Source of the DNA: Nemertoderma westbladi
Lineage: Eukaryota > Animalia > Xenacoelomorpha
NCBI GenBank assembly: GCA_032718475.1
Contig: JAUCBJ010002263.1
Location: forward strand, 28,565 to 92,564
DNA: 64,000 bases
Reading direction: 5' to 3'
Positions within the stretch are counted from its first letter, which is position 1. The number at the start of each line of letters is the position of its first letter. Below, piece by piece: positions 1-52,739 of this stretch. A model generated the notes under the pieces. The model worked only from the letters and a program-made list of their open reading frames with translations, did not search any database and had not been told where the DNA came from. A program made the position numbers and the translations under genes.

Positions 1-649
1 GGGCGCTGCATGGCAAGTGGAGCATTTCGAAGGGCGAAGGGGTGTGCGGTCCAAGTTAAAGTGGGCGCTAGCGTGTTGTGGACATCTTTTCCCTGCGTTG
101 CTGACGGCCTAACGGTCTAGGCGGTCATCTTCCCGATGTTTGGCTGTCCCAAAGTTGGACCAAAGAAAAACATGTTCAGGAGTTTACAAATATATTTACA
201 GTTTACGAAGTTAATTGTGATTGTACAAGTAGTGATAACCGAAGGCAAACCAGCCCTTTATATACTAAATCTGGGACATAGAATTCGCTAGAACCTCCTA
301 GAGTATTCGATGGCCTCACATTGGAGCAATAAGATATTCCATGCCTTATGATTGGCCTAACTCATCGTTCGATACGTTGTACGCACCTCATTGGCTTACC
401 AATTTGTACCAAATGAAAATAAATGGCCCCAAAATACAAATTTCCCGACCAAGATTCGAACTCGTAACCTATGTAATGCAACCAACGCCTTAACCATCTG
501 ACCACTACGCCACGAGAGTAACTAGGGGTTTTATGTATACAAATATGAATAGGCATATTACATTACTGTAACTTAATCAACGTGCGTCGGATTTTCGAAA
601 GTTTTTACGTTATACTACAAATGCTATTCTATATTGAAATAATTCATCA
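1..649 (-). repeat. 3' LTR of element 1 (partial)
   Basis: Direct repeat of 22896-23544 (offset 22895); identity stops exactly at 649/23544. Confidence 0.95.
440..515 (-). ncRNA. tRNA-derived Pol III A/B-box unit in U3 of element 1 3' LTR
   Basis: Minus strand: TGGTCAGATGGTTAAGGCG (A box/D arm) ... GAGTTCGAATC (B box). Acceptor and anticodon stems do not fold. Confidence 0.6.
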
Positions 650-666
650 CCGCTCCATGAAAACAG
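650..666 (-). other. Plus-strand primer site (PPT position) of element 1
   Basis: CTGTTTTCATGGAGCGG immediately precedes the 3' LTR; the identical 17-mer precedes the 3' LTR of element 2. Confidence 0.7.
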
Positions 667-1182
667 TAAGTAAGACTGTTTTCACCAATCGAAATACAAA
701 ACTATTTACAAATACTTCTAAGTCTACTGGTAGGGCCTAAAATATAAAACAATCACTATCTAATTATTGCATACTTAACATTACAGGTACAGCGTAAATA
801 CAATCCATCATACATACAAAATACAAATTTACAAATCAACTTTAGTGCATAAAATACAAAAAAAAGGCTTTCGGTTATCAAGATAAACAAAATAAACAAA
901 TCAGAACAAAATAAATCAAAACGAATCGAACAAATAATTGCAACTCTTTCAATAAATCTTTATATATTGTAAATATACATAATAAACTTCCACCAAATTA
1001 AATCAGTCCAAATATAAAATAAACATAAGGCGCTAAAATCCTTTAAATAAGTCTTAAAGTGTCCTCCTGACGATCTAAATAGTTCGTCCTGCTGGTCTGG
1101 ATGTCTTCTCCTGAGCACTAATTGCTAACGGTAGGCTCGCAAGCCTTCCTTCTCTATCTCGCTCCTCCAAATCAACGTCCGA

Positions 1183-1334
1183 TATAAATACCAAAATATA
1201 ATATCCAAACATAAAATATCCAATATAAATATCCAAATATAAAATATCCAATATAAACATCCAAATAAAATATCCAAATATAAAATATCCAATATAAACA
1301 TCCAAATAAAATATCTGAATATAAATATCCAAAT
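1183..1334. repeat. ~14-15-bp AT-rich tandem repeat (ATATCCAAATATAAA-like) in 3' UTR of element 1
   Basis: About 10 visible units, flanked by two copies of the 20-nt hairpin motif. Confidence 0.85.
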
Positions 1335-1370
1335 CGGTAGGCTCGCAAGCCTTCCTTTCTTCTCGCTTTC

Positions 1371-2873
1371 CTATTCCTTGGCTGATCGGGCTCGTCCACA
1401 TCCTCTAGTGCGACTGGGTGGTGGTCGAGATCGAACTGGACTCGGACTTCGGTGTCGAGTTATTGGTGGTTCCAAAACGCTAGGAAAGGGGACGACGGGA
1501 GTCTCACACATCCGTCGTGCGCTCAGTCCTCTAAATCCTCGTCCGATTCCAACTGTCGGCTTAACATCGGATCGAGTTTCTACAACGCTGGGAGGAAGTC
1601 GAAAGGGTAGGACCATTCCGTCCGTTGACACCTCGCTCTCTGACGTCGTTTGAATCCTAATGGGTTCCGGCAAAGCGTATCCTGTCCCTCCGCGTGGTTC
1701 TCTAGCGAGGGAAACCGTGCCCCGAGTCATCCGGATTTGCGACTTCGATGTCGTCCTCTCGGCGACATTTACTACTTTCTTTATCTCTTGTCCGGCCTTT
1801 TGGGCTCTGAGTATACGAAGTTGCGGATCATCCTGTGGGTGACGTGTCTTTTCAGCTAACGGCGTGGCCTTGAAGCCAGTCTCACGCAAAACGTCGGTCT
1901 CGTCTAGAATGCACGAGGTTACGCGTTTGTGATAAAATGCGCTCCTGTATGCCCAAGCTATCGAATGCCAAGCTCCTCGATTCCGCTGTTCAACTCGCAA
2001 TTTGTCGAATTCCCCGGCGGTAATCTTGTTCACCACAGTTTGAAAGTTCCAAGTATTCTTGTTGTCGGGGTGTACCTGTAGAAAGTAGTCCCGCACAACT
2101 TTAAATCCGCTATCCAGTGGCAATATATCCAGCACCTCCAGAAGTTCGTCGTACTGAGGCATAGCCGACACGTATCCTTCCTTCGACATTATGAGAGGGT
2201 TTACGGCCCAAAATCCCAAGTGGGCTCTCATAGGAAAACGGCGTCGCTGCGTTGATACATGCTCGTCTGCTAGATTCTCCCAATGGTCGAATAGCTGTCG
2301 AACGATTTTAACTGACATATGCTCATAGGGAACGTCCCTATGTTGACATTCGGACGCCCTATGGCCTTTAATATTACAATATGTGCACTGCGCCACGAAA
2401 CGCCAGCAAGTGTAGAAAGTGTGCGAACGCTGATCCCCGCACCAGTTGCATACCAAGTCCGGTAGAGATATGTGTTTCGCTCCGCATTTCTTTGCGTGGT
2501 GGCCAGTTGCCCCGCATCTGCCACAAATAGTGTTGGCAGGGTACCAAACTCGCTCATAGATAAGATCTCCGATGGGGCGAGCGCTACCGTCTACGTGATA
2601 ATTCTCATCATCCGGGTCAGTCGGTATGTTCGTCTCTGTGGGTTGTACACAAACCATGACATCGCTTTTCTCCAACTCGCGTATCTCAGTTCGCGTCTTC
2701 CTCGGAAGATTCTCCTCTATTTCGATGAGTTGCCGCAACGGTTCGTCTATTAGCGCCAACTCGGTCAGATCCACATCGTCGTGATGGGCGGTAGGCTCGC
2801 GAGCCTTCCAGGATCCTTCCGGGCGTTCGAATTCCGCGTGGCGTTCCCCGTCGTAGGGTACTAACGTTAACAT
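1371..2873 (-). CDS. Accessory protein, C-terminal part: three CCHC zinc knuckles plus RG/RS-rich tail
   Basis: CGRCGATGHHAKKC, CNWCGDQRSHTFYTC, CTYCNIKGHRASEC; tail GIGRGFRG...RSPSPVRSR...GRARS. Clear homolog at 36150-37586. In frame with 2991-4784 across one TGA. Confidence 0.8.
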   Translation of the reverse strand: MLTLVPYDGERHAEFERPEGSWKAREPTAHHDDVDLTELALIDEPLRQLIEIEENLPRKTRTEIRELEKSDVMVCVQPTETNIPTDPDDENYHVDGSARPIGDLIYERVWYPANTICGRCGATGHHAKKCGAKHISLPDLVCNWCGDQRSHTFYTCWRFVAQCTYCNIKGHRASECQHRDVPYEHMSVKIVRQLFDHWENLADEHVSTQRRRFPMRAHLGFWAVNPLIMSKEGYVSAMPQYDELLEVLDILPLDSGFKVVRDYFLQVHPDNKNTWNFQTVVNKITAGEFDKLRVEQRNRGAWHSIAWAYRSAFYHKRVTSCILDETDVLRETGFKATPLAEKTRHPQDDPQLRILRAQKAGQEIKKVVNVAERTTSKSQIRMTRGTVSLAREPRGGTGYALPEPIRIQTTSESEVSTDGMVLPFRLPPSVVETRSDVKPTVGIGRGFRGLSARRMCETPVVPFPSVLEPPITRHRSPSPVRSRPPPSRTRGCGRARSAKE

Positions 2874-2990
2874 CGACGGTCTGTCGACTAGGCTTCCCGC
2901 GTGAGTGAGATAGACGTCCCTGAAAACGCAAAGTCCCGCTCGCGTGAAAACTTCGCAGTGCGCATCGGTGTTATAAAAGGGTTGGAGAAA

Positions 2991-4784
2991 TCATCGGAAT
3001 ACATCCGTATGCATCCTTCCTCCGTCGTAAAAGGTATGTCCTTCACCGAGACATAACGGATGTCGCTTCAGAGTCCTAGACACAACATCGGCGATGAAGC
3101 AGACGTTGACCGAAGATTCTATCGCCAAGTAATATTGTAAGATTATTCGCGGAGGTGAAGTAATCGCCCAGTACACGCAACCTCGCCACTTTAGCTGTGA
3201 CTCGAACTCGTTTACGTCGGGAGTGTCTCCCTCTCCGTATACGTCCGTGTATTTGCTCCTCTTACTCTCCTTATAATCCCAACTGAACATTAGATATGAG
3301 ATATAACCCGTCCCAGTTTTTAGCGTGTTATACTCCCTAAAGTATCCTTGCTCGATAGCCCAAAGCAACAATGGTCTAGTATCCACGTATGGCGTAGGCA
3401 ATCGGTCCTCTTCCGTGGGCATCCCTGCAAAGTCGCTAATAAGGTCATCCTGTACACTGGATCCGATCTTGACGATGCTTTTGTCTAACACAACGTCTCG
3501 CATGGCCTTTGGCAACATCCTAGCTTCTATGCTACAAGCCAGGTCCATGGATTTAACTATCCGTTTTATCATCGCGTGTCTTTGCGTCGTTCCTTCCGGC
3601 ATAGGCATCTTTCTATCGCTTCTTTGTCGGCTGAAGACATGTAACACGCCATCTGGTGCTCTAATCTGTATAGTCTTTGAAGTGAGGCTTTGCTGGTGGC
3701 TTCCTCCTTCATTATCGTAAAACATGTAACCATTCTCCTTCAGAGATCGGCTAGTCACGTCCCAATCGTCGAGTAAATCGTCGGTAGGGTTCCAAATTCT
3801 CCCAATCGACTTTTCATCATCGAAACTAATAGGTTTTCTGGTCCAATTGGTCGCGATGTCGGTGTCGGTCTCGAATGTTCCAACTCCGATCCATAATCGA
3901 ATCGTTCTCGTCAGATATCCTCGCAAGATACAAGGTGCGATATCCGTCCCTGCGCGATCCACTTCCTTAAAATCCGTAATATGTGGAGGCACATTGCGTA
4001 CGATTTTCTGAACTATTGTTCTACGCAACTCGGCTGACTCTAACACATCACCATAGGTAACCGATGGGAGGAAATCCAGGTTCGAAATGATCTCCGGGTG
4101 TTCAACTATAGGGATCTCGTAAGTTGTCTCCTTCCGGGTCGGTATACTAATAGGAAAACTAGTTGGTCTCGCAACCGGTACTATCGTTCCAGCAGAATGG
4201 GGTTGAGGTTCTCGCGTCATCTCGACATGAGGTATCTGTAGTCTCTGCGACAAACGCTGAGCAAAGGTGATACTATCGAAGAGCTCGGGTGTCATCTCCT
4301 TAGGTTCGGTTTGATCGTGGGATATCCAATAGAATGGTAGGCTCGCGAGCCTTCCGCCGAACTCCTCGATCTCGCCTTTCTCGTACGCCTTGTACGCCCT
4401 GTAGAGGCTCAAAGCTTCCCGTTTCTCTTGCGTCGACTTATTAGATTCGTCCACTACCATGCTGTAGACGTCTGGTTCGACTAATTTAGGTTCGTTAATA
4501 TGCTTTCGTCCTTCTGGGCTCCTCCCGGAGGCGCACCCACGAGGCGGACGTGTTTCCACCACCCCTGGGGCCAGTCTGACTGATGTTATTATCAGACCGG
4601 GCCGGAGGGTGGCCCGATGCTTCCCGGGTTCTGTTTTCGGTCCCCTGATCACACCGGCACAGCTCGTCGAACGTGTAGCCAGATGGATGGCTACTGTCAA
4701 CTTACTGTGGCCTGACTGTACATTGAGCCAACTCAAAGTATAACAAAGAGTCAACCGGCAGGTGGACCAGTCGATAGCGATCAA
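2991..4784 (-). CDS. Accessory protein, N-terminal part: DEDD/DnaQ-like 3'-5' exonuclease (WRN/EXD/Mut-7-like fold)
   Basis: FYDNEG (ExoI DxE), TIQIRAPDGVLHVF, LPKAMRDVVLDKSIVKIGSSVQDD (ExoII), YVDTRPL, LQYYLAIE (ExoIII-like). True start uncertain (ATG at 4460 or spliced). Confidence 0.6.
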   Translation of the reverse strand: MIAIDWSTCRLTLCYTLSWLNVQSGHSKLTVAIHLATRSTSCAGVIRGPKTEPGKHRATLRPGLIITSVRLAPGVVETRPPRGCASGRSPEGRKHINEPKLVEPDVYSMVVDESNKSTQEKREALSLYRAYKAYEKGEIEEFGGRLASLPFYWISHDQTEPKEMTPELFDSITFAQRLSQRLQIPHVEMTREPQPHSAGTIVPVARPTSFPISIPTRKETTYEIPIVEHPEIISNLDFLPSVTYGDVLESAELRRTIVQKIVRNVPPHITDFKEVDRAGTDIAPCILRGYLTRTIRLWIGVGTFETDTDIATNWTRKPISFDDEKSIGRIWNPTDDLLDDWDVTSRSLKENGYMFYDNEGGSHQQSLTSKTIQIRAPDGVLHVFSRQRSDRKMPMPEGTTQRHAMIKRIVKSMDLACSIEARMLPKAMRDVVLDKSIVKIGSSVQDDLISDFAGMPTEEDRLPTPYVDTRPLLLWAIEQGYFREYNTLKTGTGYISYLMFSWDYKESKRSKYTDVYGEGDTPDVNEFESQLKWRGCVYWAITSPPRIILQYYLAIESSVNVCFIADVVSRTLKRHPLCLGEGHTFYDGGRMHTDVFR

Positions 4785-5671
4785 GCACCAAGGTCACCCC
4801 TGGGCCTAACCGACAGTCTTGTCCCAAGCGGGCTTGCGCTACCCAACATTGGAATTTTGACACGTTTTCACCTGCCTCGCCGGCAGTATTGAGGGGAAAT
4901 AAGTTCCGCAAACAATACTGACTAGCTCGAAAGCTAGGAACAAGTAACCACTTACCAGTCACTGTACACGTGTACTCAACAGATGTTCACAAATCAAGTA
5001 CACAAAAGGTAAACACAAAATCGAACACATACCATGCACACACAGAGACAAAATCGGTAAAGACAAAATCGAGGTCAAAGTTAGAGGGGACAAAATTGTA
5101 TCGACTGAAAGCCAAAAAAAAAGTCGAGAGTACTTTATTTTACCGTCAGGGTAAAATAACTTGTGTGTACAAAGCATGCTGGGGTGCAGTAGAGATATGG
5201 TCCTACTAATACCAGCGGCGTCTGGACCAACTGGCAAGGGTTCCCACACTCACTCGCACTGGCCATACATACAATCACGTGTACTCACGTACCCACAGCA
5301 ACAGAAAGCTCAAAGACCCAAACAAATTCCAAAGACCAATCAGCTGAACATGGAGACAATAACATATAGTATCAAAAAAACGGAACAGCTGATGGCCAAA
5401 GGAACCCATCCAAGCCCCAAGCAAACTGCCACCGATTGCCCACATACAAAACATAGTTCACGCCACATGAGCCACAAATCACGCCATGCCACCACCCCTA
5501 CTGTGTACAGGACTGGCAGTACAGCAACAGGCCGACTAGACGGTACCACGGCACCATGTCGATTCATGGTTCGCTAGACACGAGGGCCTTAAGTATCTCC
5601 CTTGCACTTACGCGGTACTTTAACGTGCCCCCAGACCCTCACGAGTCCGCCGCCGCCTGTTGATCGCACCC

Positions 5672-6313
5672 CTATAGGGACCTCACCTCTTTAGGTACGA
5701 TCTCACCCGCATTCGGTCCACTCATTTTAAACGAATGATACGGATTTGTCAAAGGGTATCCGCCTTCTTGGTAACGTAGACTTTGGTGGTATGAGCATCG
5801 CGCTAATATCGGCTCGGGGTTCTCCGAGTTCAACCGCATAGGAATCGCGTTGTCTTGCTCACGCATACACGCTCCACATTTATAAAACAGTTTGTATATG
5901 GAGAACGCGTCCTTGGTCTCTGGATCCGCTCCTCGAGCGCGTCTATAAAGATGCATTCCTTCAAATTCGTCTCTGGCTGCAGGTAAGGGTTCATTTACCG
6001 TCAAGTATTGCAGCATATGATATAATCGGCGTATTTCGGTGTCTGGATCCTCGCAAATGTCGCTAGCGTCGCATAACGCGTCGTAAGGATATAACGCATT
6101 GAACTCCGCACGTAATTCCTCCGTTCTTTTGTTATATGCGTCCAATCGTTGTCGTGTAACATTCGGGTCCGCCTTGGATTTAGCGAGCTTGGCTGTACTC
6201 CTAGCCATACTCTCCACTCCAAACACACTAAAGTTTTTAGCTCCATAACGATTAAATGGCGCCTGGTGCTCTTGTTCCTTGACGTAACTCTTTATAAATC
6301 TTCTCCGCCATCA
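5672..6313 (-). CDS. Accessory ORF-A of element 1, unknown function (possible Zn-binding CGAC...CSYH); frameshift near 6290
   Basis: APFNRYGAKNFSVFGVESMARSTAKLA aligns with APFERFGAKDYTIFGIKELSESTAKLA at 35983-36219 in element 2. Confidence 0.6.
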
Positions 6314-6485
6314 TATACGCATATATAACCCCACAATATTTATTACTATTAATGAATCAATCACAATTACAAACAATATTAACAAACAAACAATTGCACA
6401 GATACCCATCACCAAGATACAATGAAACTTTTAAAATTTATTTGTAAGGAGCCCAAAATTTTGAGAATTTTTAGTTTAAAACGCT

Positions 6486-9400
6486 CTAGACGCTAGGTAG
6501 CCCAGCACCGTCATCCAGCCCTAGGCCGCTCCTCCACTTCACCCTGGATCCCCGAAGGCAGTGGGTGGCGCCGCGGATGACCGCCAGCTGGATGCGGGTT
6601 CGAACCCAGCCCATGGTGACGCTGTAAGGACGCCCCCATGACCGATGCAGCCAGTCAGCCACCACGCGAAGCAGGTGATTTGCCTGAGGAGCGAGTACTC
6701 CGCAGCAGGACGCAACGAAAGGCGAAAAGTCACCTCTTCGAGCAGTAACTGCGTCCGCATAGAGCCGCCTCTTCTCGTCTTCGGCAGACACTAGTACTGA
6801 CATCGGGGCGCGACCCACGTAAGACTCGGCGTCAAGGTTTACAACCCGGATGTCTATCAACGCCTGAGTCTGTGGGTTTAGTGCGCCCCGGATGCCCACG
6901 TCACACCGAAGACCAGCTGCTCCCTCCTCCCCCTGCTGCTCCCGGACTATCGGCTCACGCACCACGTTACGCGGTCCAAATGCGAGCGCGGCGAGATCCC
7001 CGAAAACATCCCGCAGTTCGTTATGGCGTTGGATGACAAGGCCGCCTTTTTTACAATTTAAACCGTGGTTTAAATCAAAGGCGGCCCCACACCCATCGCA
7101 CCTGCTCGGAACTGCCGCCAAGGGGCGACCATAGCGGATCGCCAGGGCGTCCCGGAACTCCTGTGGCGACAAGTCTAGGTGGTGGTCGGCTAGCGGAACA
7201 GCAGAAATCCACCCACTCGAGCGGAAATCGGCGGCACACCGCACTGTCCGGCTGCGGCAGTCCGTTAACTCCTCTAGCGTGGATTCGAGGTCGACTTTCT
7301 CCCGCAACATCTGCTGTTCCCGACCCTCTTTCCGCGCTCGCTTCAGACAGTCCAGATGCTCCGAGTGTATGTATGAGCTCTTACCGAGTATGGCTGCCGC
7401 GAGGGAAGCGGTCCCCTTCTGTGAAACCGAGAAGGACTGGGCAGCCTCGGACACCGGATTTCGCAGCCCGAGCCCAGCGTTGCGGGGGGACAGACCGAAC
7501 AGTTTTCTCTCTTGGGAGGATACCTCACTTCCTAAGATTGCCGGAAGAAACCGTTCGGTTATCGCCTCCTCCAGCACCTCGTATTCCTCACTACAGTCCG
7601 GGGTTACCCGTTGTAGGTAGGCCCACTCCCGCTGGAGGGAGCAGGCCATAGCCGCAAATGCGGCTTGGGGCTAGGCCTCTGCCATCTCAGCGCAAGACGA
7701 TCAACAGAGTCGACCCACCCTGCTACCTTAGCCTGGACATGGCCCCTCCTCTCTACAGCGCCGCCTATGTACCCGTTGAGGAATCGATGACCTGACACAA
7801 TATTTATCGATTGGCCCGCAAAGACTCTATGAGCCTCCTCGACAAACTCTGGGGCTACTACGAGGTAGCATTTCTTTGGCTCCGGGAAGTATCCGAGAGT
7901 TGGTCCGAAACGCTGTAGCTCGATGAACCATTCGAGAACCAGCTCCAGTCTACCTCCCGCCCCTGAGTCATCCTCATACCAGTTCTGAACCAGTTGAGTA
8001 TCCGGTGGTTTACGCAGGAGGTGAATGAAGGGGAGAATCCCTGAAGAATACTCAAGCATAGCGAGAGGATCTCCCTGCGTGGTGCCCTCCTCACTGAATA
8101 TCACCTCCTCGGTCCCGCGTATTGTTAGTATGCCATGCCCCCGGTAACTATTGAACAGAAACAGGGAGCATCGAGGCCACAGCCGACGCGCATTCCACAG
8201 CGCGGCTGTCCGGTTTAGAGAGTTAAACGCGTTTGACGCGTCTATGAGGAGAAACCCCCAGCCATCATCACTCCGTTGATCGAACAGATCTGCCATCGTG
8301 TGGACAGCGGCCTCCACCCCTGCTGATGTGCCGGCGGAGAGCTGTTCAGCGCCGCAGGTTGCCGTAATATCATCCCCCGTGGCTTCAGCCATTGAGCGAC
8401 CGAGAATGCGACGCAAGCATTCCCCGATCCCGATCGGCCGAACTCCTGGGCATTTATCCAGGGCAATCAACCGACACGACATAAGGGCACGTGCGGACTC
8501 CCACGGTATAACTGTGTTGGCGAAGGACCGGGCGATATCGGCGATGGCGTCATGAAGGCGTTCGCTGTGGGCGCTGTATCTGAGTAAATAGTCGCCCCAG
8601 CGAGTTGAGTCTGAGCCCGCCGGGCCGGCTCCCCCATGTAGTCGGCGAGCAGCAGACTCGACGTGGGAGGCCGTTATGTCAACATCGACACGGATTGGGA
8701 GTTCTTCATCTGGTTGAAGGAGAGATTCTGGGGGGGGGGGTTCGGAGGCGGGTGGATGCTTGGCTCTCAGGATATCGAGGACTTTGACATTTCCTCCTCC
8801 CATGTCGACTTCCTGGTTAGGGTCTAATAAACCGCCGCTCTCCCGACCGGTCACCCAGCGTACAGCGCTGCGTACCTTCCCTTCTAACATCAGACGAGTA
8901 AAAACTCGGATCGTGTGATCCTTGTCCTCGCCAGCCGGCTTGCTTCTCGCTCGCCGCCCTGAACTGAACTTGAGGGAGCAGCGCTCCGCCTCCTGTAGTA
9001 AGGCCTCCATATTCCCGGCCTTCCACATCTGTAATCTGCGGCTCAGAAGGCGCCGGATGTCCGCGGCCTTTGCAACTTTTGGGTCGCGGTGGAGGAGCAA
9101 TGCGTCCAAAAGTATGATCCTATCCGAACGCGCGTTGGCTATGTTGTGGCGCAGCCCAGACACGAAGGCCGTCGCTTCCTCCGCCAGCATCGCAACACGT
9201 CACGGCCCACTGCACCCCCTGGTAGTCTGTATTTGGAACCGCAGAGCTGAGTCGCCCGTCTCCACTGATGGAGCAGGCAGTCCGGCACGGCCCCCTTCCC
9301 TACCAGTGGGGCCCCATATGCCCTCGTCATTAGGTCATGAGGGTCGGTGTTCCTTCGGGGCTCCCCACCTGTGCTCCACTGGTTGCTGAACACAGTTCCG

Positions 9401-10604: not shown

Positions 10605-11499
10605 CCCTGTGCTGGTCGATCGCTAACAGTGTCCGCAAGCCACAAACGTTCTGGGTTGTCAGCAATGTCAAACGCCGTAATGGTGGCCTCCTCAGTTTGG
10701 CGCCAGGCAGTCTGGCTGTCGGCACTATCAAAGGTGCTATACTGACCTACAGCATATACGCAGCAGATACGCATATATATGGTTACATATCGTTACGTTT
10801 CTACTAGATGAAGCACAAAATAGAGGTTAGATGTGAGGTGACTTAGAGTTTGTCGGCTTTGGCTCAACTTTGCTCTAAACCCCAACCCATTTGCCTAATG
10901 ACTTCGGGTTCGCGTGATTTCGCACTGGCTCCTAATCCAAAAAAATGTGCCGATAAAAATCGAATTCCGGGTAAACTAGCCGCGAGTCTAAAATACTCAC
11001 CTTTTAATTTCCCAAACTACATTCCCAAAAGAAAAATAATGCAGTCGAGAGTTAATTCGGTCTAAATAATAGTAGACACGACTACGTAGAACAAGGCCGG
11101 TTTTCTTTTCCAAAAAAAAGTTTATCGGTAGGCTCGCCAGCCTTCCATCCGCTCTTGTCCTCCCCAATTTTAATTTTATCTAGCTGTATTCTAGAATTCG
11201 CATTCACTGGAGAATCGTTTTTCTTAAATTTAAATCCAACTAAATGGATTTGTCTAATAAATTTTGAAAAATTGTCTCACTTGTGGGTTCCAAGTGGAAT
11301 TCCATTCCTACTGTACACACAATCCCGCTCCTATGTGATATATAAGGGTACTACCCTCCATGTTCACATATAAAGACAATGGAATTCTACCGCTGTCTCT
11401 ATCTACAGTGAAGAGGATTACAAATGCACATACAGTAATACAAATACTAAATTACTAAAATACGGTAGGTCTATGTGGCGGCCAACAAAGGTCCCACAT

Positions 11500-23624: not shown

Positions 23625-23751
23625 TATAGAATCATATTCCCTAAATGCCGTGGATTTTCAAAATTTTATTTTATTCGAATTAACTTTGTTAAAGATTACA
23701 TTAAGTCCTCATTTGTATTTGCTATATCTATTGTACGATGTTTAGTCAAGT

Positions 23752-23838: not shown

Positions 23839-23904
23839 GTACAGAATTTCAACTCATTTAAATTGACCGCTACAAATTAAATTGCATTTGTCTGTACCTA
23901 GATT

Positions 23905-29300: not shown

Positions 29301-32300
29301 AAGAACTCTGTAAGGGGGGGGCTATAACAAAACCCGTTGACTTACTAAAACTAGCTGACGAGATTAAAAACGCCATTACTACACTACGCTCGATTGGACA
29401 ACTTGACTACGCGAACACTCCGACAGTTCTATTAAAAATAATAGGAAGATTACACCATCGACTTCGTCGGGAGTGGCGAAAGATAGAATATCAGCGAGAA
29501 GAGAGAGGCGGATTCTTGAAGTTGGAAGACGTCTACCTACTGATATCCAGAGAGGCAGTAGTCGAGACGCGTTCGAACTACACGGACCAACATATTGTGG
29601 CGGAAGGAATCACACTACCTTCATCGAACCGACAGAAACCCCAGACAACATCCACTAAGACGGCCACTTACGTTACGCCGACGGAAACCCGACGATCTTC
29701 AGACGGTAGTAAGGTGTCCGCGCCCATTGGCACCAAACAGATCCGACAACAACTAAGTACAGACTTTAGTGGTTGCCAATACTGCGAGCAGCTAGGCAAG
29801 CGGCACACTGGTCACAAACTAAGAGGTTGCCGGTTATTTCGCGAGTTAAACTCGGAAGAACGACGCCTGCAGATACGGCCATTAGATTCTTGTTGGCGGT
29901 GTACGCTACATGGACATGTCCGTAAGGACTGCCCAAATACGGACACCTGTCCTTCTTGTGGACGCAACCACGACGGCTTGCTACACACCGACAGTCATAC
30001 GCCGACAAAACGCTTCACAAGGGAACACCCGGAAGCTGCAGCAAGATGCAACACAGCATACAAGGGTCGAGAGTCGAAAACAACACCGACATTCGTGACA
30101 CACATTAGAGATTGTTTCTCGGAACAATCAGGATCGTCAGATGAAGAGTCGGAAGAAGACGACGTTTACTTTGATACTGGAGACGAACAACCATCGATTG
30201 CGCTCCTGACGCCTGATCAACTAAAGGGGTTTAGCATAATTCCCGTCAAGATTACTGGCACCAAAGGGAGCAAGAGGATCTACGCTATCCTGGATTCAGC
30301 CTCATCTCATAGCTCTGTGGATGAGAAAGTAGCTGATGTTGTCACGGATCTTAGACAAGGTAAGAACGTCAGTTACACCATAAGTAGTATGCATGGACAA
30401 CGTGCAATACCAGTAACACGAGTTAAGTTGAACTTAGACACTCTTCTTCCGAAATCGCAACATAGCGAAAAGGAGAGGTCTTTGTTACCCTTTAAGGATT
30501 TAACCTTTGCGGCCACAAAGGACTTTAGTAACCTACTAGGTCCTGTCCCAGAACAATCCTTGGAGGACCGTAAGTACATCAGACACCTTGGTGTACCTGA
30601 ATGTCCTGTCAATTATAGATCGGTAGCAATGCTGATCGGGACAGATCAATTCAACCTACATCAAGTGTGGGAAACCAGGCCATCGGCAGTCGTAGCGGGA
30701 AACGCATACGCCTGTAGAACGCCGATAGGGTGGTATACTCGAGCGCCTGTGCGCACACTGGATATAAGTGACGAGGAAGACGATATACAAAGTACATGTA
30801 GTTTATTAACTACAACTTCGACTCATTCCTTTTCACACGACGTAGACTATACTACACTACAGTCAAGTTCGACAAAACATGACACGACGTGTGTAGCTAG
30901 CATGATAAGTCACAAGGAGCAGCTAATCCACCAGGTGAGTTTAGAACTTGGGGAGAAGACGAGTCAGCCAGAGATTCCATCGACGACAGACGATAACGCC
31001 GGAAGGCTTGCGAGTCTACCTACACCAACAACCTCAACAATGCCCGTCGATATCGATGATGACGCGTTAAGAAATCATCAAGTGGAACAAGCTGCATTGG
31101 ACAAAGAATTAACGGAGAAGACTATCAGGTGGTTAGAACAAGATACAGCTGAACCTGGTAGCTACGAACCATGTATGTCGGAACAAGAGAAACAATCTTT
31201 GAAGATCATGGAAGATACTATCCGCCAGACGAAAGACGGACATTATGAGGTAGGGATGCTATGGCGTAACCAACATCCTAAACTCATAAATAACTATCCG
31301 CTAGCCTTAAGACGTCTACACTCAATACGACAACGTCTATTAAAGGACGAGAAAGCCCATCTGCAGTATAATACTCAGATGGAGACGTATTTGACCAAAG
31401 GATACGCTATCCGAATGACTAACCCAGAGATAGTGACTGACCAGACATACTACTTGCCACATCACTACGTGAGACACCCCGACAAACCAGACAAAGTATG
31501 TGTAGTCAATGACTGTGCGGCTCTGTTTGAGGGGATGTCCCTCAATAGCGAGTTGATGGATGGACCAAACATGAACAATTATCTTATGGGGGTGATTATG
31601 CGCTTCCGTCAGCGTCAAGTAGCCTTTACTTGTGACGTCGAAGCTATGTTTCACCAAGTGAGAGCGTTAGAGCAAGACAGAGACAATTTGAGGTTCCTCT
31701 GGTATCCGGAAGGAGACTTAAGTCTACCACCGGCGACTTACCAAATGCAAGTTCGCGTTTTCGGTGCCAGGGACAGCCCAAACTGTACGATGTATGCCCT
31801 AAAGCAAGCCGCTAGGGATCAGAAACATTTATATGACCCAGAGATAATTAAGATCGTAGAACGTGACTTTTACGTAGATGATGGTTTACAGAGTTGTGAC
31901 ACAGTAGAACGTGCTATAACAGTAGCACATCAATTACGGGACTGCTTAGCGGGCGGAGGTTTTAACCTCACCAAATTCGCCTCAAACAGTGCCGAATTGG
32001 TAAACTCATTCGGAACGACTGAGCGTGGAGGTGGTGACATTGACCTAGAGTTCGAACCACTACCGACGACCAAGGTGTTGGGGCTCTTTTGGGATCCAAA
32101 CACGGACAACTTTCGAGTGAAGGTGAGACTGGACAGTCAAGAAAACACACTGACAAAGAGATCCTGCTTGTCAAAATTGAGCCGATTGTTCGATCCATTA
32201 GGATTCATCAGTCCAATAATACTGCAAGCCAGAATTTATATGCGCAGTATTTGGAAGGATGGACTAACATGGGACGAGCCGATCTCATCAGACCAAGTGG

Positions 32301-35300
32301 ACTTATGGAAAACCTGGGAGGCAGAATTATCTTCGCTAGAGGATTATTCCATACCCAGAGTCTACTTTCCATTACAAACAACGTTTCCTGACAACTTGGA
32401 ATTACATTGTTTTTCCGACGCCAGTGACAACGGCTTTGGTGTGGCAGCGTACTTGCGCAGACAAGTAGACTCAGAAGAGTTCGATGTTTCGCTCATTACT
32501 TCTAAGGCAAAAACAATGCCTACTAAGTATATGACGACACCACGAGCTGAGCTACAAGCCGCAACCCTGTCAACCACAATCGTGAACCTTATACAGACTG
32601 AACTACAGTCAAGTTTACAGATATTTTATTGGACTGACGCGACGTTGGTTTTATTTTACATAAACAACGACACACTTGAATTCAAGACATTCGTAGCTAA
32701 CCGTCGCGCAGAAATTCTAGACCGTTCAATAAAAGAAGATTGGCGACATTGTCCCGGACCACAAAACCCAGCCGATATTGCGTCAAGAGGAATGATGCCT
32801 GAGGAATTCTGTAAACCAGAGAACAAAGAATTTTGGCAGCACGGACCACAGTTCTTGCAGGGATCAATACAACATTGGCCGCCACTATACGACAACAAGT
32901 CTAACACTATCCCTAAAGACGCGGAAATTAAAAAACCAAAGAAAGGGAAAGCAAAGAAAAGGACGGCGGCGAAACTTAAGAAAAAACCGAAGGCGAAATG
33001 GAAAGCGATAACTTCAAAGGTCAAGAACGGAAGACTTGCGAGCCTTTCTACACCAGACATATCGCCAGACGGTCAACCAGACACGTTACTAGACGGTCAA
33101 CCAGACACGTTACTAGACGGTCAACCAGACGTTTTGCCAGACATGTCACAAAATGTTCTACCAGACACTAGTGACATATTGACAAATAGTAAAGCCGCAG
33201 TTTCTCTATTGGAGCGGCCTTCTATTGACAAACAACCAGACGCGTTACTAGACGGTCAACCAGACGTTTTGCCAGACACGTCACTAGATATTTCGCCGGA
33301 TGTTCCGCGAAACATTTTACCAGACATGTCACAAAATGTTCTACCAGACACTAGTAACATATTGACAAATAGTAAAGCCGCAATTTCCCTATTGGAGCGG
33401 CCTTGTATTGACAAACTACCAAATTTGACACACTTGAGCAACAATAAGCACAGCGAAACCTCATGTATTACAGATGTGGGTAGTACCTACGCTAATGTAA
33501 ATACAGGTGTTACTTTGCGCTCAAGAGACATACCAAACTTGCAACCTATGGTGAGACCCGGGATTAATATCGGCAGAAAATAAAGTTTACCGAAACCCAC
33601 TGACCCCATAGAGTTCAAACCACCATTAACGATCGACTTACAAAGTACTGCCAATCAAGGTAAGAAACCAAAGAAGGACAAATTACTTGTAGACCCGGAC
33701 GGATCAACAGTCAACAAGGGAATACCTACCGGCGGACCCGTGGGCCCTTCTAGTAAATCAAAACCTTCAAAATTCTCCATTGACTTACCTGATGACGTCA
33801 CAAATACTTACGTCGACCGTATTGTAAACTTAACAGATTCTTGGACAAACGCGTGCCGAAAATTAGCGTGGATTGTACGTTTTGTACAATACGTTAAAGG
33901 CAAACGCGACTTTACACGTCGACTTACATTGACTGAGATTGACAGGTGTGAAAGTAAATTAATTCGCCATTACCAACTGCGATATTTCAAGCGCGAATTC
34001 ACATCTATAAGCCAAGGTCAACCAATCAAGTCGTCACCAATATTGAGTTGGAGTCCGATAATTTATAATGGCTTAATTTGTCATAAATCTCGGCTTCAAA
34101 ACATTGACTTTAACACAAACTTTAGATACCCAATAATAATACCGCAGCATCACGAACTACAACGTGCAATGATACTGGACGCACATTTACATCTGAAACA
34201 CGCTGGAAGACACCACTGTCTTTCCTACTTACGTACAAGATTTGTATTAATTAGACCCAGTAAAGCATTAAGTTCAGTGACACGTACGTGTATTATTTGT
34301 AAAAAGGTACATTCTAGAATAGGCACTCAAGAAATGAGTGAACTTCCACAAGCACGATTTCAAGCATTCAGACCACCTTTTACATAGACTGGAATTGATT
34401 GCTTTGGTCCCATACATACGAAACGTGGACGTATACTAGTAAAACGCTGGGGACTGATTTTCACATGTATGTCCAGTAGGGCAGTTCATATTGAACGTGT
34501 GATGGATCTTTCTACCAACGCGTTTATACTAGCACTGCGGCGATTTATCGCCAGACGCGGACTAGTGAAATGCTTGTACTCAGACCAAGGGACAAACTTT
34601 GTTGGTGCTCGAAATGAGATTGCTAGAGCCTTTAAGAAATTAGATCATGACCAAATCTCAAACGAACTACGTCCTTACAAGATTGTTTGGAAGTTTAATC
34701 CTCCAGATAGTCCATGGAGAGGCGGAGTCTGGGAGAGATTGATTAGATCTATAAAAACAGCCATGGCAAAAGTAATTCCAGTAAACCACATTTTGACAGA
34801 CGACCAACTGACAACACTGTTTGTTGAAATCGAGGCAATACTAAATACTAGACCAATAGTATTAGTACCCGATGACAAACAATCCCAGTTTGCTTTAACA
34901 CCAGCACACCTGCTTATGCAGGCACCGACTACTTTGACGCCGATTTCTATTCCAATAGAAGGTGATAGCTATGGTAGAAAAGCGTGGAAAATCACGCAAC
35001 TACTAGCTAACAAATTCTGGGAAATATGGTAAAACCATTATTTGCCCTCTATTTCTGCCAGAACAAACTGGTACAATAACACCCGCGCATTAAAGCCGGG
35101 AGATCACGTGCTGTTAGCAGAAGTGAATCTAAAAAGACGCTTCTGGATAACAGGTGTAATTTTAGCCACACATCCATCTATGGATGGAGTGACAAGAACT
35201 GTGACGGTACGGACAATTGACGGTCGTACAGTTGACAGACCGACTCAACGTCTCGTACTTCTTGAAGAGACTCGAAACGAGTCTGGAGACTACAAATCTC

Positions 35301-35320
35301 CAACAAATGTTAGTAAATAA
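26330..35320 (+). pseudogene. BEL/Pao gag-pol polyprotein of element 2 (~2997 codons in one frame, 4 nonsense codons)
   Basis: Stops ending at 28870, 33583, 34387 and 35032 are all in frame. Motifs AILDSASSHS, FYVDD, HCFSDAS, H..H..CIIC, GIDCFGP, YSDQGTNF, GGVWERL. Confidence 0.95.
28222..28540 (+). repeat. 84-bp coding tandem repeat (4 copies) in gag, each carrying the 20-nt hairpin motif
   Basis: QFTSQSTTSRKTCEPTEQRR.. x4; motif starts at 28251, 28335, 28419, 28503. Confidence 0.95.
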
Positions 35321-35982
35321 TTAGGAGTTTACAAATAGATTTCCACGTACCTGTACACTGTAGTAAGGACAGCGGTAGAATTCCATTGTCTTTATATGTG
35401 AACATTGAGGGTAGTACCCTTATGTGTCACATAGGAGCGGGATTTGTAGGTATAAGAAATGGAATTCTACTTGGAACTCACAATATTGAGACATTTTCGA
35501 AATTTTAGACAATCCATTTGGATTTGAAAAATTTTTAAAATTTTCTCCAGTGAATAGATTTCAGGGTACAGTCGGGTGGAACTTAAAATTAGAGAAACAA
35601 GAGAGGAAGACTTGCGAGCCTTTCTTAAGATTTTAATTAAATTTTACACGGTCTTGTTTCAATAAGTTACGTCAATAAATAGACTTCCCTATATTTATTA
35701 CTAACTCTTGACTGCTTATTTTCTGATAATAGTTTGGGATCAAAAAGTGAGTATTTTAGACTCACAGCCAGTTTAGCCTAAATTGTTTTTATTTCGGCAA
35801 AAAATTTTAGATAAGAAGCAGCGTGTCATTAAAGAAACCCTAGATCTTAGGCTATGGGTAGGAGGTTAGAGCGTTGTCGAGCCAAAAGGGCAGACGAAAA
35901 CTCTCACGTCTCCTCACAACTAACTACAAACTCTGTTGTATTCCCTCTAGTAGCAATGATTATGTAACCATTACTTCCAATA

Positions 35983-36219
35983 ATGGAGAAGGGGATACAA
36001 GGAGAGCCGAGATGGGGATATGATATCCAAGAGGAAGCAGCAGCGCCATTCGAACGATTTGGAGCTAAAGATTACACTATATTTGGAATAAAGGAATTAT
36101 CAGAAAGTACAGCGAAACTCGCAAACACTAAATATGACACGACGGTATCGTGGAGGTTACGAACGAATCACGGCAGACGCGTGCGCCTATCGGTCACCTT
36201 GGTGATGATTTCGAAGTAA
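35983..36219 (+). pseudogene. N-terminal remnant of accessory ORF-A, cut by internal deletion
   Basis: Homology to 5672-6313 ends near 36150. Confidence 0.65.
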
Positions 36220-37586
36220 CTACTACGATCACTGACGATCCTTTAGAGGAACTTCTTGAGATAGAAAGGAACCTCCCGAAGAAATCTCAGACGGAGATTC
36301 GACAACTTGAAGCAACAGATGCTATAGTTTGTATACAACCTTCAGAAACCTATCAACCCATAGATCCAGATGATTACGATTATAGTGTGGGAGGAAGCGC
36401 TCGACCGATTGGAGATCTTATATATGAACGAGTGTGGTACCCTGCCAATACGATGTGTGGTAAATGTGGCGTCGCTGGACATCATTCGACCAAGTGCAGT
36501 GGAAAGCACATTACTACGACTCAGCTAATCTGTGGATGGTGTGGAGATCAAGGGTCTCATACCTTTTATACTTGCTGGAGATTTATGGTTCAATGTACTT
36601 ATTGCAATATAAAAGGGCATCGAGCATCTGAATGCCAACTAAGAGACATACCTTATGAACACGAATCTGTAAAACTCGTGAGAAAATTATTCGATGAGTG
36701 GGAAGATTTAGCCGACGAACATGTATCGGCACAAAGAAGACGATTTCCGATGAGGGCGCATCTTGGATTTTGGGCGGTAAATCCCCAAACGATGATGTCG
36801 GAAGGATACATCTCCGCTATGCCCCAATATGACGAACTTATCGAGGTAGTCGATATTTTGCCCCACGACAGTGGATTCCGAGTAGTGCGCGAGTATCTAT
36901 TACAGATTCACCCAGACAACAAGAACACGTGGAATTTTCAGAAAGTCGTAAATAGTATCACGTATGGTGAATTTGATCGTTTCCGAACTGAAAAGCGGAA
37001 TAAAGGAGCTTGGTTAACCGTCGCATGGGCGTACCGAGCCGCGTTTTACCACAAACGTATACGAGCGAGCGTATTCGAGGAAGAGGAGATCCTAGAGGCG
37101 ACCGACATACCAGCCACTCCGGTTGCGCCGTCTGCACGTCACCCTCGGGAGGACGGACAGGGTAGGATCATAAGGGTCCAGAAAGTGAGCCAACAATTAA
37201 AGAAGTCTATTAATATAGAAGAACGCAAGGGAGTTGAGCCGACCATTCGAGTTACTCGGGATACGGTATCGCTTCCTAGAGAACCAACAGGAGGATCGGG
37301 ACATACACCAGCTGATCAAAAGGGGGCGCAAGCTGCTCTTGGGTCTGCATCGTCCGCTTCTCGCGCGTTCCCAGACGTTTTACCAACTGTAGTGACAACT
37401 GATCGGTCACGAGGAATCGGTCGAGGTTTTGGGATGCCAAATAGACGAATTTGCGAGGAAACGGTCGCACCGTCTCTCAACGTCCAAGCGAAACCAGTGA
37501 CTCGCCCCACGAGTCCCATATCGCGAGCAAAGTCACCTGTGCGCAGTTTTCGAGGACGCGGCAGGGCTCGATCTACTAAGCGATAA
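36150..37586 (+). CDS. Accessory CCHC zinc-knuckle / RG-tail protein of element 2 (exonuclease part absent)
   Basis: CGKCGVAGHHSTKC, CGWCGDQGSHTFYTC, CTYCNIKGHRASEC; RGIGRGFG, RGRGRARS. Collinear with 1371-2873. Confidence 0.75.
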   Translation: MEVTNESRQTRAPIGHLGDDFEVTTTITDDPLEELLEIERNLPKKSQTEIRQLEATDAIVCIQPSETYQPIDPDDYDYSVGGSARPIGDLIYERVWYPANTMCGKCGVAGHHSTKCSGKHITTTQLICGWCGDQGSHTFYTCWRFMVQCTYCNIKGHRASECQLRDIPYEHESVKLVRKLFDEWEDLADEHVSAQRRRFPMRAHLGFWAVNPQTMMSEGYISAMPQYDELIEVVDILPHDSGFRVVREYLLQIHPDNKNTWNFQKVVNSITYGEFDRFRTEKRNKGAWLTVAWAYRAAFYHKRIRASVFEEEEILEATDIPATPVAPSARHPREDGQGRIIRVQKVSQQLKKSINIEERKGVEPTIRVTRDTVSLPREPTGGSGHTPADQKGAQAALGSASSASRAFPDVLPTVVTTDRSRGIGRGFGMPNRRICEETVAPSLNVQAKPVTRPTSPISRAKSPVRSFRGRGRARSTKR

Positions 37587-38374
37587 AAGGGAGGGCAAGG
37601 GTGGACGGAAGACTCGTGAGCCTTTCTTGTGAATTTGTGATTTATTTGAATTATATGTTTTTATATTTTGTAAGTTTTGTATTCTGGAAGAACTTATATT
37701 TAGTAAGACTCATATTTAGTAAGATTTATATTCAGTAAGAATTTATATTTTGCAAGATTTATATTTTATATTTGTGATTATTCCGAACTTATGCAATTTT
37801 TATTGTTCCGAATATTATGCAATTTATATCTTATAAGCAGTGTTTGTATTTACAGTGAAATAGAAAGTAAGAGTAGATGGAAGACTCGTGGGCCTTTCTT
37901 AAAGTTTCATTTGTAAAGTGTTATATTTCGTATTTAGAAAGTTTTATAGTTAGAAAGTTTTGTACTTAGAAAGACTCATATTTGTAATTATTCCGAACTT
38001 ATGCAATCTACATTTAGGCACGAAAGTATTTGTAATTATTTGAATTTATGCAATATTTGAGATGCAATAGTAGATGGAAGACTCGCGAGCCTTTCTTATG
38101 ATTTTCATTTATTTGTATTTGTAATTGTTTGAATTTATGCAATATTGAGATGCAATAGATTTATATTGGTGAATTTAATTTAGATTTATATTGTACTTAC
38201 TTAGTAAAGCCTTAAATATGTAAAGTTTGAATTTGTAATTATTTTGTATCGAATCATTATGTAGAAAGGAAGTATTGTTTGAAATTTAATTTGTAAATAT
38301 GTAAGTACGCCCTAAGTATTCTATAATTTGATTGATTATTGGTGAAAACCGTATATTTTATGCACGATAATATC

Positions 38375-38391
38375 CTGTTTTCATGGAGCGG
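38375..38391 (+). other. Plus-strand primer site (PPT position) of element 2
   Basis: CTGTTTTCATGGAGCGG abuts the 3' LTR; identical in element 1. Confidence 0.7.
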
Positions 38392-40279
38392 TATAGAATT
38401 ATATTCCCTAAATGCCGTGGATTTTCAAAATTTTATTTTATTCGAATTAACTTTGTAAAGATTACATTAAGTCCTCATTTGTATTTGCTATATCTATTGT
38501 ACGATGTTTAGTCAAGTGGTTCAGTAGCTCAGTCGGTAGAGCGTTCGAAATTATATATGTAGTAGGTATTGAGTTCGAATCCTTGTAGGTGCGAATTATT
38601 TTTTGTACAGAATTTCAACTCATTTAAATTGACCGCTACAAATTAAATTGCATTTGTCTGTACCTAGATTAACCAATGGGACTGTAGTTATTAGATTGTA
38701 ACCAATGTCGTGCAAGTTATATATTAGCTGGACCAATAGCTATCTTTAAAAACCTGTTAGAACCTATAGAACAATCGAGAATTTTCTCGATTGATTGCAG
38801 CACAAATTTGCTATATAAAGGTGCGATTTCGTTCATTAGTTCACTACTTCTTTCTTACACAATATTATTTCAGATTACATTGTTTATTGTATAATAGTTA
38901 TTGTTTGATTTTGTAATAAAAGTTAGAAATACTTGTCACATCTGCCCTTTTCTATCTGTTTTATCATGCTTCACCACGGTGAACCCAACTAAGGGACAGG
39001 ATGGCTGGCTAGACTTCGGGCCGCAGCAATGAACGGGAACATCAAGGGAATGTAGACAGGAGACAACCCGCAATATCAATCTTAGTTATTCGCCCATCGC
39101 CTGAAAGGTTAGACAGCGTTCAATGCCTTGCTACCTAAGTGTAAGACCAAAGATCAAAGGTAGAGGTAGTGACACGCTGTACGCCTAAAATTACATCTAG
39201 GGACTGTACTGTCTTAATTCAGGAAAAAACCGCAGTAGACCTTCATATTCCTACGGGAGGAGAGAGGAGAGCAGGCAGAGATACTAGTACGCAGATAGGA
39301 CGTAGGCACACCGGTACAAGGCATACACATTGGTAGGGTGCAGCAAACTGTACGCCTAACTCTTGCTAAGTACAGGTGCGTTTGCGACTATTTGTAGTAC
39401 AACGGTGTCCATTGCATTAGAACTTGTAGGCCAGGAGGGTTACTGTGTTTCACCTGAATTAGGATTGTACCGTTCAGGCGGTAGGGCAGTTTACGACTAG
39501 GCGCAAATAAATTGAGGCTATTAGGGATATACTAACATCTACTGTGTCCCCGCCGACATCCTGATAGGAAGTTACCAAGCCCACCTAGGTAACCAAAATT
39601 CTAGATAGGACGCCAGGCTAGCTATTAGTAACAGTACGCCTACTGTAGTAAACTAACACATTTCTTCTTAGTATTAGGGACCTGGTAAATTAAAATTGCC
39701 GAATTCTGGGCGTAGTATTAACCTTATGCCTGAATTTGAGTCCTGGAAATACGCAAGAGGGGAAGGAGCCTTATTATTCGTGAGTATTGGACCTACAAGT
39801 TACAAAATTAGAATATTCGTAAAATGCACACCGTACCCAGTAATTATATATATGGAGCAAAACTGATCTTGACGGTTCAGAATTAACACACGCGAGTTAG
39901 AAATTATTTACACCTCAAAATATATAAAATTAACTTTTGTCCGTACTGCACTTTGCCCGCTAGTTAGACATCTCCAAATCTCTGCACCTAGCTAGCGTCT
40001 CTTTCGCCCAACCATATAAATCACACCGCGGCAAAGTATACGAGCCCCTTAGTCCGTCAGTGAGTCAGCCTGATTTTAGGATTCGCTGCGCGGGATTTTG
40101 TTTTATCGAAGTTTGTCTGCTCGTAGACTGTTTTCTGCCTCACCGGTTATAAGGGACCAATACTGCAATATATTCGCTTACTTGGAGTTTACTGTTTTGG
40201 TGAGAAGGTCGGATTTATGATTTGATTCACAAACTTTACAGTAAGATATTGCAGGTATTGTTACTGTCTCTTCGCATTA
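38392..40279 (+). repeat. 3' LTR of element 2 (1888 bp), including tRNA-like unit at 38518-38604
   Basis: Direct repeat of 23625-25516. Confidence 0.93.
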
Positions 40280-52710: not shown

Positions 52711-52739
52711 TTTTGCGAATATGTTTCAAATAAATTTCC

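Follow-up and report, generated by a model that had tools for sequence, protein, structure and literature searches.

The locus analyzed here raised the question of how a long terminal repeat (LTR) retrotransposon without a host tRNA primer site could begin reverse transcription. The window, by which we mean the whole 64,000-nucleotide stretch of Nemertoderma westbladi DNA under analysis (assembly GCA_032718475.1, contig JAUCBJ010002263.1, positions 28,565 to 92,564 of the forward strand), contained two BEL/Pao elements arranged head to head within a 20/21-bp satellite. Element 1 (E1) lies on the minus strand and extends from 23544 to the edge of the window, whereas element 2 (E2), on the plus strand, occupies 23625 to 40279. 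Judged by their sequences, both are broken copies from a divergent lineage of BEL/Pao LTR retrotransposons. On balance, we lean a little beyond even toward a lineage that lacks a tRNA primer site and probably primes in the style of Tf1, with 10-11 nt of its own LTR RNA, and in which a 20-nt motif present 12 times per element probably serves as a separate binding signal for the element’s own zinc-knuckle protein. What the DNA itself shows is how the pairing is placed and covaries, the array of motif copies, and the accessory open reading frames (ORFs).

Pairing at the LTR edge

ICTV, the international committee for virus taxonomy, describes the BEL/Pao elements, as Belpaoviridae, with an 18-nt tRNA-Arg/Gly primer-binding site (PBS), LTRs of 0.2-1.2 kb, and a genome of 4.2-10 kb; they are primed by host tRNA, and their replication is poorly understood (PMC8742986). 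No 18-nt host tRNA-Arg/Gly site was found, as the TGG start was absent after either LTR. An earlier note on this DNA had reported the missing TGG and had also reported that each LTR holds an internal complement of the PBS position, which proved to be exact over 10 nt in E1 and 11 nt in E2.

21290..21299, minus strand: E1 primer-binding position GTGAGGTATA, without TGG
22711..22720, minus strand: E1 LTR-internal complement, putative self-primer, exact over 10 nt, LTR offset 825
25517..25527, plus strand: E2 primer-binding position GTAGGAATATG, without TGG
24478..24488, plus strand: E2 LTR-internal complement, putative self-primer, exact over 11 nt, LTR offset 854

In both elements the pairing started at the first base after the LTR and ended at the LTR edge, and the polarity of the complement suited primer function. 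The PBS letters differed between E1 and E2, each set matching its own LTR, and cross-pairing between the elements reached 6 nt only. Because the paired stretch begins precisely where the LTR ends and has been kept with different letters, tRNA-independent priming by an LTR-derived RNA, as the earlier note had suggested, was supported. Complements of the observed length were reached by 4 of 3000 shuffled LTRs for E1 and by 1 of 3000 for E2, and by other internal start points in 10/5960 (E1) and 9/5960 (E2) cases. For plant elements, Neumann et al. recognized a self-primer by a complement of at least 10 bp situated 0-5 bp after the LTR (PMC6317226); the complements of E1 and E2 measured 10 and 11 nt at offset 0. 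In Tf1, the PBS is paired by the opening 11 nt of the transcript, and it is behind these 11 nt that the element’s own RNase H cuts (PMC7175516). The signature in E1 and E2 is Tf1-like, and self-priming with their own LTR RNA is likely.

The reading of E1 and E2 as ordinary tRNA-primed BEL/Pao elements, with their peculiarities owed to chance or neutral duplication, is highly improbable and largely refuted. Both copies are broken and their 2-kb LTRs lie inside the published range (PMC3118150), as an ordinary element would allow, but a TGG PBS is missing and the probability of the two complements arising by chance is approximately 1e-3 and 3e-4. An alternative of greater weight, albeit still unlikely, is that the helix between LTR and PBS is a regulatory structure, either hiding a splice donor that lies at the LTR edge or acting as an RNA switch, with a host RNA such as a tRNA half serving as the primer. 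GT begins both post-LTR sequences, that of E1 making a good donor, the E1 complement was found in an alternative local hairpin, and half-tRNA priming is known in Copia and the fungal Helenus (PMC10886601). A host primer, however, should fix the PBS, whereas the two PBSs differ and each tracks its own LTR, and a splice switch does not explain a helix that ends exactly at the LTR edge in both elements.

RNA start and proposed priming mechanism

23122..23159, minus strand: E1 TATA box and initiator-like (Inr-like) TCACTACTT, 30 nt downstream of the TATA box, with CCAAT boxes upstream
24046..24083, plus strand: E2 TATA box and Inr-like TCACTACTT, a 9-mer identical to that of E1

Both LTRs carried CCAAT boxes, a TATA box, and the identical Inr-like 9-mer approximately 400 nt upstream of the LTR complement. 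In folding across 1.1-1.5 kb, an RNA that starts at the complement gave a predicted pair probability of 0.89-1.0 for the helix. With the RNA 5' end at -25 the predicted probability was 0.99 for E2 and 0.62 for E1, and with a 5' end at -60 it was 0.01 for E2. AG acceptors were located 24 nt (E1) and 21 nt (E2) upstream of the complement, and an E2 RNA beginning at its acceptor again gave 0.99. The conserved promoter lay some 400 nt upstream of the primer segment, and the helix appeared in the predictions only where the RNA began no more than about 25 nt from that segment.

In the mechanism we propose, the 5' end of the genomic RNA would lie within about 25 nt of the complement, by way of a second or TATA-less start or of processing, for example by trans-splicing to the AG acceptors that lie 21-24 nt upstream. 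The complement segment would then fold back onto the first bases after the LTR, and the element’s RNase H would cut at the 3' edge of that segment. Plus-strand copying of the primer would rewrite the PBS in every cycle, and therefore both sites would stay exactly complementary. The exonuclease-like domain of E1, described below, would be dispensable in this self-priming model.

Several points weigh against Tf1-style priming. An RNA from the conserved TATA/Inr start gave a predicted helix probability of 0.0 in E1 and E2 alike, forcing the helix in such an RNA cost a predicted 12-21 kcal/mol, and four modelled cis-splices left the probability at 0.0; an RNA 5' end near the complement is an assumption of the model. 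The fold scan of E1 was non-monotonic (0.10 at -10 vs 0.62 at -25), and the folding of 1-2-kb RNA is approximate, predictions for long RNA being unreliable. Both PBS sequences start with GT and resemble splice donors, a host tRNA fragment may act as primer, and the comparison covers two elements only. The LTR end of E1 was supported, among the matches listed, by two contigs of one sequencing run. Contig depth rose several-fold to more than tenfold at 21381 in runs X1 and X3, and a contig alignment of run X5 ended at the same position; commoner E1 subfamilies therefore have a different sequence over the final 80 nt of the LTR.

Other sources of a primer were tried and rejected. A primer built by splicing found no candidates, as none of the 7709 (E1) or 3812 (E2) GT-AG pairs gave a junction-spanning complement of at least 10 nt, and a primer ending at a poly(A) site was dropped when a poly(A) signal was not found near the complement. 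The tRNA-like unit of the LTR gave interrupted duplexes at best (-9.1 / -13.7 kcal/mol, vs -18.2 / -15.8 kcal/mol for the LTR complement) and offered no 3' end at the LTR edge. A 12-bp hairpin with a C-UACG-G tetraloop stood directly after the E2 PBS (25526-25553, plus strand), and two were predicted in E1, one after the PBS and another, which is long, ahead of the LTR end.

The 20-nt motif array

1130..19623, minus strand: E1 motif, 12 copies, starting at 19623, 18574, 18481, 15941, 15863, 15785, 13085 (degenerate), 11146, 4355, 2809, 1355, and 1149
26418..38095, plus strand: E2 motif, 12 copies, starting at 26418, 28251, 28335, 28419, 28503, 31001, 33029, 35605, 36172 (degenerate), 37607, 37879, and 38076

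The 20-nt near-palindrome occurred in 12 copies per element, 11 strong and 1 degenerate, with 0 copies elsewhere in the window, and exact matches to its degenerate pattern numbered 21, vs 0 in 100 shuffles. The orientation was that of element transcription in all copies (24/24), of which 17 lay in ORFs, in all three phases, and 7 in non-coding DNA. Inside three 78-bp repeats, the 20-mer was kept while the flanks diverged. Selection on the nucleotides was indicated, because the motif occupies all three frames as well as non-coding DNA and is conserved where the repeat flanks diverge. Several copies do sit in tandem duplications, as neutral duplication in an ordinary element would have it, but near-identical copies also stand at unrelated sites, in three frames and with differing flanks. 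The array is real and unexplained. No copy was found in the LTRs or in the PBS region, so a direct role in priming is disfavored, and the motif may be a separate binding signal for the element’s own triple-CCHC protein.

The earlier note had described 12 dispersed hairpins in each element; the number of copies held, and the hairpin was stable in E1 and weak in E2. RNA hairpins of the E1 copies reached -8.0 to -10.8 kcal/mol. On the genomic-RNA strand of E2, 11 of the 12 copies carried an A.C mismatch in the stem and reached -1.8 to -6.3 kcal/mol, which counts against an RNA hairpin as the signal. Since the E2 stem is mismatched, a hairpin is not an established form of the motif, and a site in DNA must be taken seriously as a rival. 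In that case the motif would be a double-stranded pseudo-palindrome bound by a host or element factor, for VANC-like anti-silencing or for chromatin tethering, a reading to which we give appreciable weight, if somewhat less than an even chance. The A.C mismatch weakens the sense hairpin, the antisense fold is often more stable, the motif center varies by CpG-type transitions, and a similar central palindrome occurs 194 times in the satellite host array. CCHC knuckles, on the other hand, usually bind single-stranded RNA, all 24 copies keep the orientation of transcription together with an asymmetry at position 3, and some E2 variants pair on the RNA strand only, through G.U. The targets of VANC are likewise element-specific repeats (PMC5735166), as a DNA site would suggest.

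Small palindromes with the reverse half-site of the dispersed motif were located in both 5' leaders (20598-20612, minus strand; 26126-26240, plus strand).

The accessory region

5672..6313, minus strand: E1 accessory N-terminal ORF, a 212-aa open frame, homologous to E2 35985-36140 at 37.5% (tblastn, E 7e-9)
3090..3740, minus strand: E1 exonuclease-like domain, a remote WRN/EXD-like DEDDy 3'-5' candidate, in the 600-aa frame 4793-2991
1371..2990, minus strand: E1 triple-CCHC accessory ORF, continuing the reading frame of the exonuclease-like part beyond one stop
35985..37586, plus strand: E2 accessory region, whose N-terminal start meets the triple-CCHC ORF out of frame, near 36135-36140

A gene with CCHC knuckles at the env position, which the earlier note had reported, was present in both elements as a triple-CCHC core, 71% identical between E1 and E2. 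Homologues of the accessory proteins were not found among 1.84 billion representatives, where the only match was a spurious-looking repeat protein. An Atlas search gave nothing for the exonuclease part and generic CCHC/DUF8363 leads below 0.9 for the knuckle part, and AlphaFold predictions of the accessory proteins had a mean pLDDT (predicted local distance difference test) of 31.7 and 34.3. From E2, approximately 3.3 kb of the E1 counterpart was gone, including the exonuclease-like domain. As this is an out-of-frame deletion in one copy, it shows neither independent assortment nor the state of the family.

The DEDD exonuclease claimed for E1 is a weak candidate. A profile built from six bacterial WRN-like exonucleases ranked the 600-aa frame first among 187 segments of the window, at 8.1 bits, and none of 2000 shuffles scored as high. 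The DxE of ExoI and the D of ExoII aligned, with an hhalign probability of 2.8%, while the third catalytic motif, YxxxD of ExoIII, was not at its aligned position, a later YxxxE being a possible substitute. No match to the frame was found in Pfam, NCBIfam, PHROG, or PDB, and an RNase D/PolA profile gave no score on it. The frame is weakly supported as a remote DEDDy-like domain of putative activity. Between 4793 and 5672 lay approximately 880 bp without a sense ORF, which included an AT-rich stretch resembling an untranslated region and a 140-aa plus-strand frame that had no Pfam match; the E1 accessory region may comprise two genes.

The earlier note had joined all these traits into one system, in which the accessory protein binds the motif array and trims the primer. 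This claim gained no direct support, and a single integrated system is possible but unsupported. In such a system, the DEDDy-like domain would trim the 3' end of an LTR-derived RNA back to the PBS duplex, or a plus-strand overhang copied from a long primer; we regard it as an improbable account. The WRN-like profile match stood above all 2000 shuffles, a single stop parts the exonuclease-like frame from the knuckle ORF in the same reading frame, and the family may carry the domain, since its loss from E2 is a deletion in one copy. A long RNA started at the TATA box disfavors fold-back and would leave room for a trimmed primer acting in trans. ORF3 proteins of the DEDDy type are also known in rotifer Ty3/gypsy elements, where they are linked to 3'-end processing (PMC5408684). 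The exonuclease assignment, however, is weak on the profile and alignment results given above, the motif was never near the primer or PBS, no poly(A) signal stood just upstream of the 3' edge of the complement, and the E1 LTR had no AATAAA. Tf1, moreover, works without such an enzyme, using its own RNase H (PMC7175516). In the widest form of this idea, the lineage would have exchanged host tRNA priming for an LTR-encoded primer, and a triple-knuckle/exonuclease protein would coat the genomic RNA at twelve sites in coding sequence and mature the primer or the cDNA ends, as a system like that of Rev and its response element (RRE) fused with self-priming. This, too, we hold to be doubtful, and Tf1-style self-priming with a separate motif signal is the reading we retain.

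LTRs and the U3 A/B-box unit

21300..23544, minus strand: E1 5' LTR, 2245 bp, TG..CA; 5' end from the repeat with 1-649, 3' end from run X4 contigs
1..649, minus strand: E1 3' LTR, incomplete because the window ends here; its 649 bp show 4 differences from the 5' LTR
23625..25516, plus strand: E2 5' LTR, 1892 bp, TA..TA, target-site duplication (TSD) TTTAT
38392..40279, plus strand: E2 3' LTR, 99.3% identical to the 5' LTR, 9 substitutions and 2 gaps
650..666, minus strand: E1 17-nt sequence at the polypurine-tract position, identical to E2 38375-38391 (plus strand)
23345..23410, minus strand: E1 tRNA-like A/B-box unit in the unique 3' region (U3), placed by LTR alignment and B box position, no Rfam match
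23752..23816, plus strand: E2 U3 tRNA-like A/B-box unit, scoring 11.8 bits (E 7.3) for Rfam tRNA, short of the gathering score

The LTR end of E1 was placed by two contigs of run X4 (522 and 2299 nt) that exit the element at 21300 and 21299 into long unrelated flanks; a first guess near 21440, from the E2 alignment, was dropped after these exits. LTRs of approximately 2 kb, which the earlier note had reported, were confirmed at 2245 and 1892 bp. Published BEL/Pao LTRs have a median of 383 bp and a maximum of 2427 bp (PMC3118150), and those of E1 and E2 are long, in the upper tail, yet inside this range. The TA ends that the earlier note had noticed were found in E2, whereas E1 has the canonical TG..CA, and TA ends were rejected as a trait of the lineage. 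The 17-mer at the polypurine-tract position was purine-rich in its last 9 nt only.

The tRNA-like unit that had been described in U3 has A and B boxes, conserved at the same LTR position in E1 and E2, but a cloverleaf was found neither by covariance model nor by ARAGORN. A convincing pairing of the unit with the PBS was not found. The unit is most likely an RNA polymerase III/TFIIIC element acting at the DNA level, and not a primer; perhaps it serves as a barrier against the chromatin of the flanking satellite.

Family assignment

11500..20348, minus strand: E1 gag-pol, with DUF1759, zinc knuckles, protease, reverse transcriptase (RT) with YVDD, RNase H, integrase, and DUF5641, broken by a stop and frameshifts
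26330..35319, plus strand: E2 gag-pol, a single frame with four in-frame stops

Pfam matched DUF1759 and Peptidase_A17 in both elements and scored DUF5641 in E1, with further matches to zf-CCHC and Integrase_H2C2. With a 73% identity of RT-RNase H between E1 and E2, these matches bore out the earlier description of two diverged BEL/Pao relatives. The Pfam matches and translations gave gag/pol domains of the BEL type in the order protease (PR), RT, RNase H (RH), integrase (IN) that is expected of Belpaoviridae, and of the short TSDs that flank LTRs in that family, the TTTAT of E2 is an example; the far flank of E1 lies beyond the window. Both copies were broken by stops or frameshifts. RT-RNase H was closest to BEL/Pao, with 179 matches at E<=1e-20, and most of the best 120 of the 179 carried PF05380. 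Identity to database proteins was at most 43% among the best 120 of the 179 matches, and the top-scoring named relatives among those listed came from coral, bivalve, and tunicate genomes. In a quick tree that retained near-full-length matches only (43 of 123 rows, named reference clades not among them), the pair stood on a long branch. As the family is defined by phylogeny, the missing tRNA PBS represents a variant and not an exclusion from Belpaoviridae.

Contigs of four sequencing runs covered E1 and E2 deeply and in many variants, which indicated that both families are abundant in the host sequencing runs. Protein scans of viral contigs and metagenome contigs gave 0 relatives with DNA, and a motif scan gave single-match loci only (4 metagenome, 2 bacterial, 0 viral), which were taken as chance.

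Comparison with known systems

E1 and E2 share with Belpaoviridae a DUF1759/CCHC gag, the order PR-RT(YVDD)-RH-IN, Peptidase_A17, DUF5641, a 5-bp TSD, and an extra gene at the env position (PMC8742986). They differ in lacking a tRNA PBS, in LTRs of 1.9-2.2 kb and elements of 17-21 kb, in an extra gene that is knuckle/exonuclease-like and not env, and in a pol at most 43% identical to the best 120 of 179 listed matches, on its long branch. An LTR segment exactly complementary over 10-11 nt to the bases that directly follow the 5' LTR is also found in Tf1/sushi and in the plant elements Tcn1 and TAR, but those belong to Ty3/gypsy or Ty1/copia, and the primer of Tf1 is the first 11 nt of its transcript, whereas the segment of E1 and E2 lies approximately 400 nt after the TATA/Inr (PMC7175516). 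The bdelloid Juno/Vesta elements and Terminons similarly have a 3'-5' exonuclease-like ORF at the env position of an LTR element (PMC5408684, PMC6431247). Those DEDDy ORF3 systems belong to Ty3/gypsy and Penelope-like elements, and CCHC is mentioned 0 times in the available text of PMC5408684; the E1 domain, in contrast, is remote, adjoins a triple knuckle, and has putative catalysis.

A tRNA-like A/B-box unit within the LTR is shared with Helenus and Cassandra, whose LTRs carry Pol III small-RNA sequence (PMC10886601) and which are short non-autonomous terminal-repeat retrotransposons in miniature (TRIMs) with tRNA PBSs, unlike the 17-21-kb coding E1 and E2 with a separate TATA promoter and no cloverleaf. 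The nearest analogy for the motif is VANDAL/VANC, where an element-encoded accessory protein also accompanies a repeated element-specific motif (PMC5735166). Binding by VANC is demonstrated, whereas that in E1 and E2 is putative; the proteins are unrelated, and the E1/E2 motif lies in coding sequence, in three frames.

A covarying self-primer, if true, would make BEL/Pao the third LTR superfamily with Tf1-type priming. Retroviral Rev-RRE-type systems offer a further parallel of an accessory protein with a repeated element-specific motif, and the BEL element Cer7 of C. elegans has reportedly been proposed to encode its own tRNA-like internal primer RNA, which is not an LTR segment. For BEL/Pao, no description of self-priming, of an array of dispersed motifs, or of an accessory gene of the knuckle/exonuclease type was found in the open full-text literature, with Repbase, Dfam, GyDB, and subscription papers outside the search. 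The self-priming reading predicts an exact cDNA 5' end and can be tested, and as the family is abundant in the host sequencing runs, RNA and cDNA ends should be obtainable. The motif array, with nucleotide-level constraint in three frames, and the orphan knuckle protein represent a candidate element-specific RNA/DNA recognition system in an animal retrotransposon.

Other features of the window

10816..11416, minus strand: E1 non-coding block that follows pol and precedes the accessory region, conserved in E2 at 35350-35924
6315..10778, minus strand: nested non-LTR retrotransposon, weak RVT_1 match, 12-bp TSD at 10778 and 6326
23545..23624, no strand: satellite between the elements, four 20/21-bp units; the array resumes at 40280-46106

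The non-coding block was 72% identical between E1 and E2 over 611 nt (430 identical columns of 642 aligned), and an Rfam search of the E2 copy gave no match. Directly 3' of pol, approximately 110 nt were near-identical between the elements (35350-35480, plus strand; 11416-11290, minus strand), likewise non-coding and without an Rfam match, and these possibly provide the accessory gene with an internal promoter or an RNA element. Both pol genes held long insertions derived from 12/24-bp repeats between RNase H and integrase (13333-13760, minus strand; 33020-33420, plus strand), each of which contains or adjoins one motif copy.

The nested non-LTR element, which we take to be CRE-like, adjoins the E1 accessory start codon on its upstream side; it comprised an RT with a C-terminal zinc/restriction-like region, and its first ORF held a 30-bp tandem array. 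E1 and E2 were both inserted in the satellite array, E1 adjoining the palindromic core CTCGCGAG, which occurred in 194 copies and equals the center of 5 of the 24 motif copies. The satellite was interrupted at 41601-42078 by an insert of approximately 480 bp, with a 155-aa minus-strand open frame and a weak DUF6451 match. Further along, at 51175-62021 on the minus strand, lay a fragmented Polinton/Maverick-like element with matches to protein-primed DNA polymerase B, an A32-type ATPase, and an rve integrase.

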